This document shows positions 32,039 to 38,830 of a stretch of DNA of 64,000 nucleotides, piece after piece. Within the stretch, counting starts at the first letter, position 1. Each line of letters starts with the position of its first letter. Below the pieces are notes generated by a model that ran no database searches, was not told the DNA's origin, and was given only the letters and a program-made list of their open reading frames with translations. Where the stretch lies: positions 896,001-960,000 of the forward strand of contig CAVSGM010000001.1 in NCBI GenBank assembly GCA_963727485.1, read 5' to 3'. Both the position numbers and the translations under genes were made by a program. The stretch is from an uncultured delta proteobacterium (GTDB lineage: Bacteria > Myxococcota > Myxococcia > SLRQ01).

Positions 32039-33001
32039 CTATCGTGGGATAGCGTCCCGATGATTCTTGAGCGCACGGACTTGAGGTCGGGCTGACGACG
32101 CTGGGTACCGTTGGGCACGAGATACAGGGTCGCGAGGGTTGGCCGCCCCCGGAGCCGCTGTCGCGGGCGGCCCCCGAGAGGCCGAGCGCATCTCGACGTC
32201 GCCGATGGTCACCGGCTCGAGCGCCGCGTAGTCCGTGCGCCGCCACTTGAGGTGCGACAGCTTGCGGAGCTCCGGCGCCTCGGCCTCCACCAGCAGCTTC
32301 AGCGCCTCGAGCACCACCCGGCGCTGCTGGTCGGCGCGGCCCTTCTCACCGGTCGCATGCCCGAAGGGAAAGCGCACGAAGGCCACCCGGGGCGGGTTCG
32401 CCTTCAGCGAGTAGGCCTCGGAGATCGAGAGGGTCACCGTGGGAATCCCCACGGCCTCGATGGATTGGGCGACCAGACCGGCCGTCAGGTTGCACGTGCC
32501 TCAGGCAGGCACCAGGAGCACCGCGTCCACCGCGGCGCCCTGCATCAGGCCGGCGACCTCGGGGCCGGTCTGGTACTCCATGCGCCGCAGCTCCTTGTCC
32601 TCCACGTGGCCCATGAGGCCCGCGGCCACGGGGGCCAGGGAGCCGACCACGCCCTCGTCGACCAGCTCGCGGACGCGGCTGACCGGGAGCACCAGGTCCA
32701 GGTCCTCCCGGGCGTCGGTGGGGTCGTACCAGTCGTGGGTGATCTCGTACTCGGCGGGGAGCCGCGAGACGTCGAGCTCGCGCCAGCTCCCGTCGCCCTG
32801 GGGCGAGTCCGCCTGGCGCTTGAAGGGCGGCTGGTCCGGGTGGTGCACGCCCCCGGTGGTCACCAGCCCCAGGCGGACCTCGGACAGGGGCTTCGTCAGA
32901 TGGGCGAAGGGTGGGGCGTCGCGTTCTTCGTGCGACCGGGCCCACATGCGCTCGGTGACCGGCACGTTCACGAAGGCCCAACGGATGAGACGCTCGAACA
33001 T
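32039..33001 (-). CDS. Selenoprotein of the D-proline/glycine reductase B (PrdB/GrdB-like) family; UGA at 32503-32501 read as Sec
   Basis: PF..L.KPLSE.RLGLVTTGGVH..DQPPF, D.S.R, H..YD, D...V.P..R..EL, VDAVLLVPA-U-GTC..GL....IE..GIPTV, PPR.....FPFG; both halves in frame; 3' end uncertain. Confidence 0.88.
32462..32500 (-). promoter_or_regulatory. Putative bacterial SECIS element
   Basis: UGA GGC ACG UGC AAC CUG ACG GCC GGU CUG GUC GCC: GGCC/GGUC stem with a GGUCU apex 21 nt after the UGA. Confidence 0.6.
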
Positions 33002-33145
33002 CGTGCCCGCTGTTATAGGGCGGAGCGAGCGCGGATCCACCCCGGATTCCGCACGATCCGGCCCGGGTTCCCCTCGCGCCCGCGACGCTCGCCAGTGGGC
33101 GACGGCCGTGGCAGACTCCTCGGCGATGCGACGGGGGGTGCCACG

Positions 33146-33488
33146 ATGAAGGTCGTCGCGGGCGTGATGGCCGTGCTCCTGGCGGGCCTGGGGATCGTCT
33201 TCCTCGCCGGGAACCAGGGCCTCGTGGGGCGCATCGTCCTCGGGGCCGTGCTCCTGGTGGCCGCGGTGGTGCTCCTGGTGGTCATGCGCCTGCGGCCCCA
33301 GGTCACCGAGCGCAACATCGTCCAGAAGATTCGACGTCTCCGGCCGGATCGAGGCCAAGGCCCTGACCTGCCAGAAGTGCGGCGCCACCCTCGACGAGTC
33401 GTCGGTGAGCGTGAAGGCCGGCGCCATCTTCGTCGACTGTCCCTACTGCAAGCAGAGCTACCAGCTCGAGGAGGCGCCCAAGTGGTAG
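33146..33488 (+). CDS. Small 2-TM membrane protein with C-terminal Zn-ribbon (frameshift near 33330)
   Basis: Two hydrophobic helices, then QKIDVSGRIEAKALTCQKCGA...CPYCKQSYQLEEAPKW after removing one base. Confidence 0.8.
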
Positions 33489-35005
33489 CCGACGTCCTCT
33501 CCCGCGCGGCCCGGGCCGTGCGCTCCGATCTCTCCGGCTTCGCCGCGGCGCTGGGCGGCGGCAAGGGCACCGGCCCCGCTCCCGGTCTCCACACCTACGA
33601 CTTCGAGGGGAACGGCGGGCGCACCCGGCTCCACCTGCGCGCCCAGCCCGACGGCACCGGGCTCCTCTTCGTCGACGTCACCGACGTCCTCCACCTCTCG
33701 GGCGCCGCGACCATGCTCGCCTGGCTCGCCCTGGAGGACGTGCCCGAGGCGCGCGCCCTGGCCACCCTGGCGCGGCGGTACCGGGGCCGCACCCGCGGCG
33801 AGCTGGCCGCGGACTACCGGCGGATGCGCGAGGTGGTGGCGAGCCTGGCCAGCCCGGGCGAGGGCTGCCGCACCTGCCAGCTCGACCTCCCCAAGACCCC
33901 CCTCTTCGCCACCCGGGCCCAGGCGCCCCACAAGGTCGACCTGGCGCTCACCTACGCCTGCAACAACGACTGCCCCCACTGCTACAACGAGCCCTCGCGC
34001 TTCGATCTCGACTCCCTCGACGCCGCCGGCTGGCGGCGCGTCCTCGACCAGCTTGCGAGCGTCGGCGTCCCCCAGGTCGATCTTCACCGGCGGCGAGGCG
34101 ACCCTGCACCCGGCGCTCCCCGAGCTCATCGCCCACGCCAGCGACCTGGGGATGATTGTCGGCCTCAACACCAACGGCCGGCGGATCTCGCACCTGAGTA
34201 CATGCAGGCGCTCGCCGCCGCCGGCCTCGACCACGTGCAGGTGACCCTGGAGAGCCACCGGCCCGAGGTCCACGACGCCATGGTCCACGCCCGGGCCTTC
34301 CACCAGACCGTCCGCGGCATCGAGGCGGCGCTCGCCGCCGGCGTCCACGCCATCACCAACACCACCATCACCCGCCTCAACGCCGGCGAGATCGAGGAGA
34401 CCGTGGACTTCCTCCACGAGCTCGGCCTCGACACCTTCGCCATGAACGGGATGATCTACTCCGGCGGCGGCGAGGACACCCCCGACGCCATCCCCGCCGA
34501 CCGCATGGCGCCCATCCTGGTGCAGGTGCGCGACCGCGCCGCCGAGCACGGCATGCGCTTCCTCTGGTACACGGTCACCGAGTACTGCGAGATGTCCCCG
34601 GTGGAGCTGGAGGTCGGCGCCAAGCGCTGCAACGCCGGCGAGTACTCCATGTGCGTCGAGCCCACCGGCGACGTGCTCCCCTGCCAGAGCTACTACACCA
34701 GCGCCGGCAACCTCCTGCGCGACCCCTGGGAGCAGATCTGGAAGGGCGCGCTCTTCCGCTCCTTCCGCGACCGGGAGACCGACCCCGTCCTCGCCGGCCT
34801 CCCCGACAAGTGCCAGAGCTGCCCCGACCTCCCGGTGTGCGGCGGCGGCTGCCGCATCGAGCGCGAGGTCCGCGAGGGCACCGCCCCGGGCGGGTGCCAG
34901 AGCTGCGCCACCGGGGGCGTCCACTCGAGCGGCGTGCGCTCCAGCGGCTGCAGCGCCGCCACGCCCGAGACCCCCCTGGTCCAGATCGGAGGTGCCGGAT
35001 GCTGA
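33482..35005 (+). CDS. Radical SAM/SPASM enzyme with N-terminal RRE/PqqD-like extension (frameshifts near 34079 and 34197)
   Basis: LTYACNNDCPHCY, IFTGGE, NTNG, SPASM CNAG..C.EP.G..LPC and CQSCPDLPVCGGGC. Confidence 0.92.
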   Translation: MVADVLSRAARAVRSDLSGFAAALGGGKGTGPAPGLHTYDFEGNGGRTRLHLRAQPDGTGLLFVDVTDVLHLSGAATMLAWLALEDVPEARALATLARRYRGRTRGELAADYRRMREVVASLASPGEGCRTCQLDLPKTPLFATRAQAPHKVDLALTYACNNDCPHCYNEPSRFDLDSLDAAGWRRVLDQLASVGVPQVDLHRRRGDPAPGAPRAHRPRQRPGDDCRPQHQRPADLAPEYMQALAAAGLDHVQVTLESHRPEVHDAMVHARAFHQTVRGIEAALAAGVHAITNTTITRLNAGEIEETVDFLHELGLDTFAMNGMIYSGGGEDTPDAIPADRMAPILVQVRDRAAEHGMRFLWYTVTEYCEMSPVELEVGAKRCNAGEYSMCVEPTGDVLPCQSYYTSAGNLLRDPWEQIWKGALFRSFRDRETDPVLAGLPDKCQSCPDLPVCGGGCRIEREVREGTAPGGCQSCATGGVHSSGVRSSGCSAATPETPLVQIGGAGC

Positions 35006-36285
35006 AGAAGACCTTCAAGCGGTCCCTCATGGTCGAGCGGGCCGGCGGCGAGGCCCCCGAGCCGGGGCTCCATTCGTTCACCGGCGAGGCCGACGGCCGG
35101 GCGGTGCGCTACCACCTGCGGGTGGAGCCCGACGGCGCCGGGCTGCTCCTCGCCGACGCCGCCCGGGCCCTGCGCCTCTCGCCGGTGGGCGTCGCCGCCG
35201 CCGCGGGGATCCTCGGGGGCGAGACCCACGCCGCCGTCGCCGGTCACCTCCGCCGCCTGTTCAAGGGGGTCACCAAGGCGCGCCTCGTGGCGGACGTCGC
35301 CGCCGTCGAGGCCGCCATCGAGGGCCTCTCGCGCCCGGGGCACGACGGCCCGGTGGACAGCCTCGACGACCCCACCGCCACCGCGCGCACCCGGGCCCTC
35401 TCGGCGCCCCTGTGCGCCGACGTCCGCCTCGGCGAGGTCGCCACCGGCGAGACCGTGCTCCGGCGCCTCTGGGACGCCGGCGTCCCCCAGGTCGTCGTGG
35501 TGGTGCCCGAGTCACCGGACCCCGCCGCCCTCACGCGCCTGGTGGAGCTCGCCGGCGACCTGGGGATGATCACCGGCGTCCGCGGCCGGGCCACCGAGCT
35601 CCTGGGCGACGGGCTCCTGGAGTCCCTGGTCCAGGCGGGCCTCGACCACGTGGACCTCGCCTTCGCCGGCGACGCCGCGGTCCACGACCGCCTCTTCGGC
35701 GCAGGCGACCACAAGGCTGCCGCCACCGTCTTCGAGGCGGCGCGGGCGAGCGAGGTCTTCAGCGTGGCCGTGGTCCCCCTGGTCGAGGACACCGCTCACG
35801 ACCTCGACGCCGTCCTCGAGGCGGCCCAGGCCCTCGGCGCCGGGGCCGCCGTGGCCCACGCCGTGGTCCAACCGGGGGGCGCCACCCGGGCCCTGGCCCC
35901 GGAGGCCCTGCGCCAGGCGGCGGCGAGCTGCGAGGACTTCGCCGACACCCGCGGCCTCAAGGTCGTCTTCGCCACCCCCACCGCCATCGCCAGCGACGTC
36001 GACCTCGAGGCCGCCGTCCGTGCTGGCCCCCGGGCCTCGGGCGAGGGAACCCTCGCCGTCGACGCCGCCGGCCGGGTGCTCCCACCCCGGGGCGACGCCG
36101 CGCCGGTGGGCGACCTCGCCACCACCGAGGTCGCCGCCGTCTGGGCGGCCCCGTGCTTCGCCCCCTGGCGCGAGCCCACCGCGCCCCCCGAGCGCTGCGA
36201 CGCCTGCCCGGGGCTCACCACCTGCGACGCCGGCTGCCCCAGCGCCGAGACCTCGTGGGCCCGCCACCCGGGAGGTGCCTCGTGA
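34999..36285 (+). CDS. Degenerate radical SAM/SPASM paralogue lacking CxxxCxxC
   Basis: Colinear with the upstream enzyme (PGLH, HLR..PDG.GLL, GVPQV, DLGMI.G, AGLDHV, VHD); only CDACPGLTTCDAGC is retained. Confidence 0.82.
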   Translation: MLKKTFKRSLMVERAGGEAPEPGLHSFTGEADGRAVRYHLRVEPDGAGLLLADAARALRLSPVGVAAAAGILGGETHAAVAGHLRRLFKGVTKARLVADVAAVEAAIEGLSRPGHDGPVDSLDDPTATARTRALSAPLCADVRLGEVATGETVLRRLWDAGVPQVVVVVPESPDPAALTRLVELAGDLGMITGVRGRATELLGDGLLESLVQAGLDHVDLAFAGDAAVHDRLFGAGDHKAAATVFEAARASEVFSVAVVPLVEDTAHDLDAVLEAAQALGAGAAVAHAVVQPGGATRALAPEALRQAAASCEDFADTRGLKVVFATPTAIASDVDLEAAVRAGPRASGEGTLAVDAAGRVLPPRGDAAPVGDLATTEVAAVWAAPCFAPWREPTAPPERCDACPGLTTCDAGCPSAETSWARHPGGAS

Positions 36286-38123
36286 AGGCCGCCACGTTCC
36301 GCGCGCTGCTCCTCGGCGCCGTCGCTGCCATGCTCTTCGCCTGGGCGCCCCCCGCCCGCGCCCAGGGCTACATCTTCCGGGTCCCGACCTTCGAGCTCCA
36401 GGCGACCGTCAACCCGGACGCCTCGGTGTCCCTCGACTACACCATCGTCTTCCACAACCTGCCCGGCGCCCACGCCATCGACATGGTCGACGTGGGCCTG
36501 CCCACCAAGGACTACGACACCACCAACATGGTGGCCTCGGTGGACGGCCAGCACGTCTACGGCTCCATCGGGCCCTCGCCGCGGGTCAAGGACGGGGTGG
36601 TGGTCCACCTGGGGCGGCACGCCATCCCCGCCGGCGCCACCGGCACCTTCCGCTTCCACACGGTGGTCCCGGACCTGGTGTTCAACGACACCACCGACCG
36701 CAAGCTCGCGTCCTTCCGGATCACGCCGACCTGGTTCGCCTCCAGCGTCGTCGCCGGCACCAGCGACCTCAAGATCGCCGTCCTCGTCCCCAAGGGCGTG
36801 AAGCCGGACCAGCTGCTGCACCAGGGGACGCCGTTCACCGAGAAGGCCGTCTTCCACGATCGCGCCGCCGCCATCTGGGAGTACCGGAACGCCCGGGTCA
36901 CCGGCCCGCACCTGGTGGGCCTCTCGTTCCCCATCTCCTCGATGAAGCGGGTGGTGCACATCTCCAAGCTCGAGCTGCTGGCGAGGTGGTGGGTGGCGAG
37001 CCCGGGGGTGCGGCTCATCGCCGCCCTGCTGATGCTCGGGCTCTTCGCCTTCGAGTTCTTCCGCTTCTCCGGGCGGACCGGGTGCACCGTGTGGGGCGCC
37101 CTCACCGCCGGGGCCGTGGTCCTGTTCATCTTCGCGCCGCGGATGCAGCTGTGGCTCGTCGTCCCCTGGGTCGTGGCCCTGGTGCTCATGGAGTGGGCGC
37201 TGCGCCGCAAGCGCCGGGACTACCTCCCGCCCATCGTCAACGTCGAGGGCGGGGGCATCAAGCGCGGGCTCACGGCGCCCGAGGCCGCGGCGCTCCTCGA
37301 GGTGCCGCTGGGCAAGCTGGTGACCCTGGTGGTCTTCGGCCTCCTGAAGAAGGGCGTGCTGGTCTCCAAGCAGACCGAGCCCCTGGTGCTCGAGGTCGCC
37401 GAGGCGTTCCGGGGCCAGAGCCCCACGGCGAGGCGCAAGGCCGCGTCCCAGGCCGGCGTGGTCCTCCAGAAGTACGAGAACGCCTTCATCGACGAGGTGG
37501 AGAAGCACGCGGGGAAGCCGGTCACCGAGATGGACTTCTCGGACGCGGTGAAGGGGCTCCTCGATGCCGCCACCTCGCGGGTCAGCGGCTTCGACGTCAG
37601 CGACACCAAGGCCTACTACAAGAAGATCGTGGAGCGGGCGTGGAAGATGGCCGAGGACCTCGGGCCCATCGACCAGCGCACGAAGGCCGTGGACAAGAAC
37701 CTCGAGTGGCTGCTCATCGACCACGGCTACCAGCGCCGCTTCGACCACTGGGGCACCAGCGGGTTCCTCTATGCGCCCCTGTGGATCCGCTCCCCGGGCA
37801 GCGCCATCGGCCCGGTGGGCACCGCGCCCTCCGGGGGCTCGGGGTCGTCCGCGCCGAGCTTCGGCGACGTCTCCGGCTCCTTTGCCGGCTGGACCCAGAA
37901 CGTCACCGCGGGCATCGCCGGGGCCATCCTCCCCGGCGCCGTGACCGCGCCGAGCGCCAGCGGCGGGGTCATCAACCTCTCGGGCTTCGACCACGCCACC
38001 GCCGACGTCTTCCAGGCCATGGCCGCCTCGGGCTCGAGCTCCGGGGGCGGCTCCGGGGGCGGGTGCGCCTGCGCCTGCGCCGGGTGCGCCTGTGCCTGCG
38101 CCTGTGCCGGGGGCGGGGTGTGA
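36282..38123 (+). CDS. DUF2207-like membrane protein with C-terminal (Cys-Ala)n tail
   Basis: Signal peptide, beta-rich exported domain (VNPDASV...Y), about 3 TM, LTAPEAA.LL, cytoplasmic domain, ends SGGGSGGGCACACAGCACACACAGGGV. Confidence 0.82.
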   Translation: MKAATFRALLLGAVAAMLFAWAPPARAQGYIFRVPTFELQATVNPDASVSLDYTIVFHNLPGAHAIDMVDVGLPTKDYDTTNMVASVDGQHVYGSIGPSPRVKDGVVVHLGRHAIPAGATGTFRFHTVVPDLVFNDTTDRKLASFRITPTWFASSVVAGTSDLKIAVLVPKGVKPDQLLHQGTPFTEKAVFHDRAAAIWEYRNARVTGPHLVGLSFPISSMKRVVHISKLELLARWWVASPGVRLIAALLMLGLFAFEFFRFSGRTGCTVWGALTAGAVVLFIFAPRMQLWLVVPWVVALVLMEWALRRKRRDYLPPIVNVEGGGIKRGLTAPEAAALLEVPLGKLVTLVVFGLLKKGVLVSKQTEPLVLEVAEAFRGQSPTARRKAASQAGVVLQKYENAFIDEVEKHAGKPVTEMDFSDAVKGLLDAATSRVSGFDVSDTKAYYKKIVERAWKMAEDLGPIDQRTKAVDKNLEWLLIDHGYQRRFDHWGTSGFLYAPLWIRSPGSAIGPVGTAPSGGSGSSAPSFGDVSGSFAGWTQNVTAGIAGAILPGAVTAPSASGGVINLSGFDHATADVFQAMAASGSSSGGGSGGGCACACAGCACACACAGGGV

Positions 38124-38830
38124 CCGCGGCGGACCTCCCGTCGCCAGAGGCCCTCGAGGCCCAGGCGGCGCGGCTGGCGGGGATGCGCAGCCGGCTCCTC
38201 CGCCAGGCCGGCGTCGCCCACCTCGGGCCGGTCCTCGATCTCGGCGCCGGCTACGGCGCGGTCACCGGCGAGCTGCGCCGGCGCGCCAAGGGGCCGGTGG
38301 TGGCCCTCGACCGGCGCCGCGAGGCCCTGGCGCACGCCGGTCCCCCGGCGGTGGCGGCGGACGCCCACGCGCTGCCGTTCAGCCGGGGCGCCTTCGCCGC
38401 GGTGTTCTGCCAACTGGTCTTCCTCTGGCTCGCCGACCTGCCCCGGGCCCTCGCCGAGATCGACCGGGTGCTGGCACCCGGCGGGACCCTCCTGGCCATC
38501 GAGCCCGACTACGGGGGCCTCGTGGAGCACCCGGCGGACCTCGCCCTCGGCGAGGTGTGGCGCGCCGCCATCGCCCGGGCCGGCGGCGATCCCCTCGCCG
38601 GACGGCACCTGGTCGCCCGCCTCGGCGAGGCCGGCTACCACGCCGAGACCCGGCTCCTCCCGAGCCTCGCCGCCCCCGACGGGACGCGCTTCGACGTCCT
38701 GGCGGGCCTGCCCCTCGAGCCCGCCGAGCGCGCCCGGGTCGACGCCGCCCGCCGCGCCGAGCAGGCCCTGCCGCCTGGCGCCGCCGTCATCCACCTCCCG
38801 TTCTTCTTCGTCCTCGCCCGCCGGCGCTGA
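38120..38830 (+). CDS. Class I SAM-dependent methyltransferase
   Basis: VLDLGAGYG, ADAHALPF, RVLAPGG.L..IEPDY; GTGA overlap with the previous gene. Confidence 0.88.
   Translation: MTAADLPSPEALEAQAARLAGMRSRLLRQAGVAHLGPVLDLGAGYGAVTGELRRRAKGPVVALDRRREALAHAGPPAVAADAHALPFSRGAFAAVFCQLVFLWLADLPRALAEIDRVLAPGGTLLAIEPDYGGLVEHPADLALGEVWRAAIARAGGDPLAGRHLVARLGEAGYHAETRLLPSLAAPDGTRFDVLAGLPLEPAERARVDAARRAEQALPPGAAVIHLPFFFVLARRR

Follow-up and report, generated by a model that had tools for sequence, protein, structure and literature searches.

A conserved Cys-Ala tail on a bacterial membrane protein travels with a radical-SAM enzyme that probably modifies it

Results

The window analysed in this work is a stretch of 64,000 nucleotides from an uncultured delta proteobacterium (assembly GCA_963727485.1, contig CAVSGM010000001.1, positions 896,001 to 960,000 of the forward strand). 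Within it lies a gene for a membrane protein of 613 amino acids (aa) that ends in seven cysteines alternating with alanine. We find that this tail protein and a radical S-adenosylmethionine (SAM) enzyme encoded beside it, named rS1 below, travel together across at least ten phyla, and that the tail is the most conserved part of the protein. The tail is likely to be the substrate of rS1, because the enzyme bears a predicted RRE-like domain, the two strictly co-occur, there is no room for a precursor and every tail residue is fixed. We conclude that rS1 probably modifies the tail in place on the membrane protein, whatever the modification may be.

The Cys-Ala tail is genuine and nearly invariant

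The open reading frame (ORF) of the tail protein, 36282-38123 on the forward strand, starts with GTG, and its translation ends in ...ASGSSSGGGSGGG-CACACAGCACACACA-GGGV-stop. A GGGSGGG stretch comes before the Cys-Ala run, and the C-terminus can also be written as SGSSSGGGSGGG-CACACAGCACACACA-GGGV-stop. The translation thus confirms the seven-Cys tail reported in a first-pass annotation of the sequence, although the Cys run does not stand in place of a Gly-rich end, as was stated there, but comes after a Gly/Ser stretch. The protein is laid out as follows.

36282..38123 (+), tail-bearing membrane protein, 613 aa, a remote DUF2207/TIGR04222 relative
36282..36362 (+), predicted signal peptide, residues 1-27, ending in ARA (from hydropathy, with a helix at 2-21; cleavage site inferred)
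36363..36956 (+), extracytoplasmic domain of beta structure, folded like ribophorin I/Ost1 (M1-aminopeptidase N-domain-like)
37002..37220 (+), three predicted membrane helices (241-263, 268-284 and 286-313), the last running into RRKRR (from hydropathy and the model)
37266..37910 (+), cytoplasmic domain with a GOLPH3/Vps74-like fold
38064..38123 (+), Cys-Ala tail CACACAGCACACACA-GGGV and stop, residues 595-613, predicted to be disordered and cytoplasmic; the proposed substrate

The seven tail Cys codons, at 38064-38105, comprise 5 TGC and 2 TGT; the seven Ala codons are GCC throughout, and the alternation is broken by a single Gly. The 12-codon tail core occurs once in the window and in none of 100 shuffles, even when 3 mismatches are allowed. 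A six-frame scan of the genome found one further Cys-Ala run, in an Arg-rich frame that is apparently non-coding.

A homologue search yielded 484 proteins out of 7998 scored candidates. Among the matches listed, the tail is present in 119 of 120 homologues, with seven Cys in 73, six in 45 and eight in 1; the 120th (P0009) is a frameshifted near-copy, 96% identical, whose shifted letters give the same tail. The GGGV ending given in the first-pass annotation is true of the window protein, but the usual last residue is Arg: 116 of these 120 end in AGGGR, and a terminal Val is found just in the window protein and P0011. When full-length homologues are clustered at 50%, the tail pattern is found in 101 of 108 representatives. 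The other 7 consist of one that has the tail but a longer Gly run, two that are apparently frameshifted, three that stop before the tail, and one with two Cys.

Tail loci were collected from genomes with a DNA pattern of ten tail codons, which gave 125 stretches from 29 of the 64 parts of the genome collection (~260 estimated overall). Duplicates of the same contig (L018, L033, L040, L067 and L071) were left out, and the pattern matches L057 and L125, the latter the only viral match, are not tails and were removed. This pattern succeeded where a locus search from a single protein had given no confirmed locus among 208 pattern matches. With duplicates and one false match removed, 125 tails comprise 124 distinct DNA sequences, and 124 of the tails encode CAGCACACACAGGGR. 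Furthermore, the five positions left unconstrained by the search pattern (AGGGR) are identical in 124/125, with all six Arg codons occurring. Given that 124 different DNA sequences give one peptide, the tail is selected at the protein level. The mixture of TGC and TGT that had first been offered as the argument for such selection is weak in one genome, but it holds across genomes. Residues 597-613 have a mean column conservation of 1.00, compared with 0.65 for the ectodomain, 0.51 for the membrane part and 0.62 for the cytoplasmic domain.

That the tail is a slippage repeat or an assembly artefact might be suspected from the single-base assembly errors nearby and from its repeating six-base unit. 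This is refuted by the recovery of one peptide from so many DNA sequences and by the homologues that share the tail. In addition, an independent short-read contig spans 37711-38087 with 2 differences and no gap, so the tail stands as genuine.

The tail gene and rS1 occur together

In 58 of the 61 loci with enough flank, a radical-SAM gene (whether active or dead) is found no more than 4.2 kb upstream of the tail gene. The idea of a radical-SAM substrate raised in the first-pass annotation is well supported by this context together with the co-occurrence described below. Where rS1 is not adjacent, an orthologue was found elsewhere in the genome in 10/10 cases checked (9 at E <1e-200 and one partial at 7e-81). 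A methyltransferase gene is next to the tail gene, downstream, in 46/67 loci, and a zinc-ribbon gene is upstream in 36/49.

To examine co-occurrence, we took 201 genomes of the class to which one Anaerolineae locus belongs. rS1 (E 1e-130 or better) and the tail protein are present in an identical set of 29 genomes, in which they are often unlinked. The methyltransferase is found in those 29 and one more; the zinc-ribbon protein is confined to 27 of the 29. Around the window's own genome, the tail protein is present in 4/4 family members and in 0/36 other members of the class. The 116 contigs belong to Chloroflexota (47), Planctomycetota (24), Armatimonadota (20), Myxococcota (5), Hydrogenedentota (5), Bacillota (4), Pseudomonadota (2), Sumerlaeota (2), Elusimicrobiota (1) and Nitrospirota (1), with 5 having no phylum name. 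Clustering of neighbours, a crude filter applied to ORFs of at least 120 aa, revealed no recurring protease, exporter or acyltransferase.

The cassette encodes a radical-SAM enzyme and a dead paralogue

In the window the cassette is made up of five genes overlapping stop-to-start: the zinc-ribbon protein, rS1, rS2, the tail protein and the methyltransferase. The four genes that accompany the tail gene are listed here.

33146..33488 (+), small membrane protein with two helices, a C-terminal CXXC...CXXC zinc ribbon and the end EEAPKW; frameshift near 33330
33482..35005 (+), rS1, an RRE-radical SAM/SPASM enzyme with CX3CX2C; single-base frameshifts near 34078 and 34192
34999..36285 (+), rS2, a full-length rS1 paralogue lacking CX3CX2C but retaining the RRE-like domain together with a single CX2CX5CX3C set
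38120..38830 (+), class I SAM-dependent methyltransferase (PF08241, E 1.6e-17), its start overlapping the tail gene's stop (GTGA)

Since the genes overlap, there is no room for a separate precursor within the cassette, the flanks not having been scanned for short ORFs. The frameshifts are absent from short-read contigs of near-identical strains (the extra base near 33330 in 4/4 runs, the indels at 34078 and 34192-3 in 3/4 each), and hence the three frameshifts are likely to be assembly errors.

The CX3CX2C motif is present in 46/51 rS1 ORFs, the other 5 being contig-end or frameshift pieces, and in 0/48 rS2 ORFs. The SPASM region of rS1 (PF13186, E 1.2e-11) has seven Cys in 42/42 sequences and an eighth in 41/42. 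Of these SPASM-region Cys, rS2 keeps just the CX2CX5CX3C set (four Cys in 43-44/45), and the two proteins align over 407 columns with an hhalign probability of 100%. A model of an intact rS1 orthologue (L034; predicted local distance difference test score, pLDDT, 88) contains an RRE-like N-terminal domain, with strands followed by three helices at 37-125. Its best fold matches are the RRE-bearing maturases SkfB, SuiB and CteB over 390-470 columns, with SkfB at the top. The Pfam PqqD profile matches rS1 weakly (E 0.14) and the sister enzyme described below above cut-off. On the strength of the model, rS1 is predicted to carry an RRE-like domain. In NCBIfam, rS1 reaches the cut-off of no named family; rS2 scores 22.1 and 17.1 bits against the TIGR04347 pseudo-SAM/SPASM family, for which the cut-off is 525. 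Matches of the methyltransferase among solved structures are generic. Mapping of the SPASM Cys did not separate the candidate chemistries, as C392 is not universal, and the short-form enzyme introduced below has no CX2CX5CX3C set at all (3 sequences).

Short and sister forms share a small residue-Cys unit

A second subtype of the tail ends in CACACACAGCACACAGGGR and has a different gene order, and some Anaerolineae carry two tail genes in tandem. The tandem loci (L005, L017, L032, L039, L062, L065 and L070) have two further genes in common, one of 254 aa (7 loci) and one of 196 aa (5), neither of which was seen in loci without tandem tail genes.

A short form of the protein, 300-390 aa long (326 aa in one example), has one membrane helix and no cytoplasmic domain, and its tail is followed by AGCSxKDFY. 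With the tails removed, its ectodomain is homologous to that of the long form (hhalign 97.2%), and the Cys-Ala run is found in 120/120 short-form proteins among the matches listed. The short form adjoins one radical-SAM gene, and five such genomes have no zinc-ribbon and methyltransferase orthologues; the core of the system is thus the enzyme and the tail protein. Two-gene short forms occur in Hungatella hathewayi WAL-18680, a cultured gut anaerobe (L045, 8920-9900, reverse strand), and in L043 and L022. In these three the tail is preceded by a His/Gly-rich stretch, and the enzyme lacks the second auxiliary-cluster motif.

A sister clade of enzymes matches rS1 at E 1e-82 to 1e-101 and supplies the top match in another 31 of the 201 genomes. 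In 9/10 loci (L131, L141, L142, L155-L158, L160 and L161) the sister enzyme adjoins a homologous membrane protein that ends in an Ala-Cys-His-Ser/Ala-Cys-Val-His-Asp repeat, with a different membrane zinc-ribbon protein nearby; the tenth stretch stops at the contig end. The residue before a tail Cys is Ala, Gly or Ser in 788/789 cases for the long form, 821/832 for the short form and 103/106 for the sister form. In two forms the Cys is followed by Ala, in the remaining one by His/Val. The unit common to all forms is small residue-Cys.

In a tree of 38 rows thinned from the loci, the enzyme groups follow the tail type. The dead paralogues form two separate lineages, a single grouping being rejected at p-AU (approximately unbiased test) 0.031, a value to be read with the long branches in mind and with the groups having been named after the first tree was inspected. 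The second dead paralogue (L147:7202-8344, L148:2828-3976 and L149:6248-7405) has lost all cluster Cys while keeping the RRE-like domain and a GGE motif, and it appears to have arisen separately from rS2.

The tail protein is a remote relative of DUF2207 and TIGR04222

The AlphaFold model of the tail protein has a mean pLDDT of 85, falling below 50 in the tail, with two loose helices between the cytoplasmic domain and the tail. The ectodomain (28-225) matches 6c26_1 with Z 15.1 and a root-mean-square deviation (rmsd) of 2.8 over 178 aligned residues, and Foldseek agrees; the cytoplasmic domain matches 3kn1_A with a middling Z of 8.2 (rmsd 3.6, 160 aligned). The odd number of helices after a cleaved signal peptide would place the tail, predicted to be flexible, on the cytoplasmic side. 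This topology, with its signal peptide, three helices and RRKRR, agrees with the placement that the first-pass annotation had assumed. A Y-x-P...EGGGIKRGLTAPEAA segment precedes the cytoplasmic domain, and residues 314-333 have a conservation of 0.94. The segment (Y-x-P...EGGG) was considered as an internal leader and dropped, as the short form is without it.

Scans of the tail protein against Pfam and NCBIfam gave no meaningful match. None of 19 tail proteins (the window's, 16 long and 2 short) matches Pfam DUF2207 (PF09972/PF20990), and the genome gave 0 DUF2207 matches at E up to 10, with positive controls. One of two second-subtype proteins matches DUF2207 at E 0.05, below cut-off, and one of two sister proteins matches PF09972 above cut-off (31 bits versus 24.4). 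The Ala-Cys-His-Ser sister family in turn aligns with the window family at an hhalign probability of 99.15% (E 3.9e-19, 390 columns outside the tail). TIGR04222 (cut-off 43) does not match the window protein; two sister proteins score 22.8 and 38.3 bits, below that cut-off, with one match at E 1e-9. ESM feature scores to DUF2207 clusters are 0.92-0.96. Taken together, these profile comparisons make the kinship to DUF2207/TIGR04222 remote and transitive, by way of the sister family. The earlier label "DUF2207-type" is therefore right as to remote homology and similar architecture, but the Pfam cut-off is not reached. TIGR04117, the CXXX-repeat radical-SAM target family, matches none of the tail proteins scanned against NCBIfam.

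Other genes in the window and genome

A GrdB-like protein is encoded at 32150-33025 of the window on the reverse strand (PF07355, E 2e-12). Its gene has an in-frame TGA then GTC (U-x-x-C) with a hairpin downstream, and the genome has selA above cut-off; the product is likely a selenoprotein. The gene is divergent from the cassette and was not found beside it in other loci. On the other side, from 38865 to ~40960 on the forward strand, an FAD-binding (flavin adenine dinucleotide) oxidoreductase (PF01565) is followed by an ORF resembling a short-chain dehydrogenase, both apparently frameshifted; we take the two to resemble a DprE1/DprE2-type pair. Elsewhere in the same genome (G000:C2, ~1,516,000-1,563,000), about ten radical-SAM matches lie within 47 kb.

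Discussion

How rS1 would modify the tail can be approached through the small residue-Cys unit, which, being shared by all forms, suggests a local ring at each Cys. Our tentative proposal, more apt to be wrong than right in its particulars, is that rS1 turns each tail Cys into a 5-thiooxazole by the steps through ring closure given here. rS1 would act on the tail still joined to the membrane protein; a deoxyadenosyl radical would abstract a hydrogen from the Cys C-beta, and an auxiliary cluster would oxidise the product to a thioaldehyde. The carbonyl of the preceding Ala/Gly would then close the ring, with a change of -4 Da per Cys and the thiol kept, as with SbtM. SbtM takes a hydrogen from the Cys C-beta of a Gly-Cys unit to give a 5-thiooxazole, with a loss of 4 Da and a thiol that can be alkylated (PMC9204691). 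The methyltransferase may subsequently cap the ring thiols or the C-terminus, and the dead paralogue and zinc-ribbon protein may present the substrate or pass electrons; both steps would be accessory, being absent from the two-gene form. A tail of thiooxazoles would offer binding sites for copper or other soft metals at the cytoplasmic face of the membrane. Both the binding of metal and the parts played by the three accessory genes are only inferred.

We prefer thiooxazoles to thioethers because related Cys tails sit beside MNIO enzymes close to a type that makes 5-thiooxazoles, and because a retained thiol would give the methyltransferase a target. TIGR04222 relatives with Cys tails have as neighbours MNIO enzymes that are near the bufferin type (PMC12452194), and bufferin-type MNIOs install copper-binding 5-thiooxazoles on repeated X-Cys units, seven of them in fontiphorin (PMC12668002). 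A wider conjecture, to which we attach low credence, is that DUF2207/TIGR04222-type proteins carry modified Cys tails, and that two unrelated enzyme classes, MNIO enzymes in aerobes and the radical-SAM clade in oxygen-free settings, converge on one product. An intact membrane protein would then bear six or seven 5-thiooxazoles with the methyltransferase cap as a switch, a pseudo-enzyme partner that arose twice would assist, and the outcome would be a membrane-tethered metal sensor or buffer.

Several observations weigh against modification by rS1 or against the thiooxazole in particular. An adjacent enzyme is lacking in 3/61 loci, and the representative P0271 keeps just two tail Cys. The 29 genomes are related and so are not independent events, and most genomes are incomplete metagenome-assembled ones. 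In five further genomes without an adjacent methyltransferase, the gene is elsewhere in 3 and absent in 2, and the neighbour clustering showed no metal-homeostasis gene recurring beside the cassette. rS1 scores 66 bits against SbtM (TIGR04082; cut-off 350), 125 against PqqE (cut-off 381) and 77.8 against SkfB (TIGR04403; cut-off 300), so that it stands no nearer to SbtM than to the other two, and its best fold match, SkfB, is a thioether enzyme. The small residue-Cys rule suits an adjacent thioether ring equally well. Finally, the TIGR04222-MNIO modification is itself a proposal, and those tails are predicted to be periplasmic, in contrast to the cytoplasmic tails here (PMC12452194).

Among the other explanations, the formation of thioethers by rS1 is possible, if on balance unlikely. 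The Cys sulfur would bond either to C-alpha of the Ala/Gly before it, giving a six-membered thiomorpholinone, or to a nearby Ala, and a rigid polycyclic tail would result. SkfB is not only the best fold match of rS1 but also its second-best sequence match among solved structures, CteB is close by fold, and Ala, Gly or Ser nearly always precedes the Cys. A precedent for closure from Cys to the preceding residue is found in enteropeptin, whose six-membered thioether ring joins these two and whose class is made by radical-SAM enzymes (PMC12395415). Thioethers would nevertheless leave the pairing of related Cys-tailed proteins with MNIO enzymes unexplained. The usual ranthipeptide acceptors are Asp, Glu, Asn and Thr, yet the last 24 long-form residues contain none of them. 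The Cys residues, moreover, occupy the whole tail, which sets it apart from classical sactipeptides with their nested hairpin.

Other rS1 reactions are, even when pooled, quite unlikely. One is the epimerisation of alternate residues, as in polytheonamide; the alternating sequence would suit such an L/D pattern, but the reaction needs no Cys, and a possible hydrogen donor, the hairpin C392 (41/42 rS1), is missing from the short-form and sister enzymes. We consider it improbable, and scarcely less so another outcome at the Cys C-beta, such as formylglycine, a thioamide or desulfurisation, to which the presence of an anaerobic sulfatase-maturing enzyme among the fold matches of rS1 would point. 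It is also unlikely that the tail carries no modification and serves to bind metal ions, Fe-S clusters or persulfide, with the enzyme using it as an anchor or as a cluster or sulfur donor, or acting on another target. This version of the metal, Fe-S or persulfide tail raised in the first-pass annotation has in its favour seven closely spaced thiols in a flexible segment, the frequency of His beside or within the short-form and sister tails, and the presence in the cassette of a zinc-ribbon protein as well as a paralogue retaining four Cys. Bare metal binding should, however, allow the spacers to change, whereas across ten phyla neither Ala nor GGGR varies; moreover, the enzyme has a predicted RRE-like domain for peptide binding, and the gene overlaps leave no precursor space in the cassette. 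Lastly, the Cys could be S-acylation sites tethering the tail to the membrane, as would befit a flexible, cytoplasmic, Cys-rich end of a membrane protein. The multi-acylation site envisaged at first finds no support in the gene context, in which an acyltransferase is not among the recurring neighbours of the cassette, and it leaves the link to the enzyme unexplained; we regard it as very improbable.

If the thiooxazole proposal or any other modification of the tail by rS1 holds, its interest lies in the kind of substrate, the sole candidate being the invariant end of a full-size membrane protein as opposed to the short peptides of known RRE maturases. The parts are of known kinds, and their combination is absent from the family models queried (Pfam and NCBIfam). 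A literature search found no description of a Cys-Ala tail/radical-SAM system, subscription journals being mostly beyond its reach. The system is common, with ~260 occurrences estimated for this tail subtype in ten named phyla, and the two-gene form in cultured Hungatella hathewayi WAL-18680 puts the chemistry within experimental reach. It would provide the first clue to function in the DUF2207/TIGR04222 superfamily, as well as a case of a radical-SAM pseudo-enzyme that has been conserved.

Comparison with known systems

RRE-radical SAM/SPASM or Twitch maturases are known to act on short precursor peptides. Among them, SkfB, SuiB, CteB and PqqE have the same domain order as rS1 and are its best matches by fold and sequence; unlike theirs, the candidate substrate here is the end of a 613-aa membrane protein, and no protease or exporter recurs nearby. 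The usual DUF2207 architecture (PF09972/PF20990) comprises a beta ectodomain, membrane helices, a cytoplasmic domain and a Gly-rich end. The tail protein resembles it in all of these, its cytoplasmic domain being helical too, and differs in the added Cys-Ala tail and the dedicated enzyme cassette. TIGR04347 is, like rS2, a pseudo-radical-SAM family, whose members adjoin an active enzyme in haloarchaea; rS2 differs in being a paralogue of rS1.

SbtM (TIGR04082) is likewise a radical-SAM/SPASM enzyme acting on a small residue-Cys unit (Gly-Cys), with the difference that its substrate is a selenopeptide precursor (PMC9204691). The captophorins and bufferins share with the present tails the repeated X-Cys units, seven in fontiphorin, and the product proposed here. 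They are products of MNIO (non-haem iron) enzymes working on peptide precursors, in contrast to the radical-SAM enzyme proposed to act on a membrane protein (PMC12668002). No MNIO (DUF692) match was found among the cassette genes, the remaining genome not having been searched for DUF692. The TIGR04222/MNIO pairs also involve a membrane protein of full size, whose low-complexity Cys tail is the proposed substrate of a neighbouring peptide-modifying enzyme (PMC12452194). Both there and in the window protein the C-terminus is a low-complexity Gly/Ser tail with Cys; here, however, the partner is an RRE-radical SAM/SPASM enzyme, and the tail is an invariant (Cys-Ala)n run predicted to be cytoplasmic.

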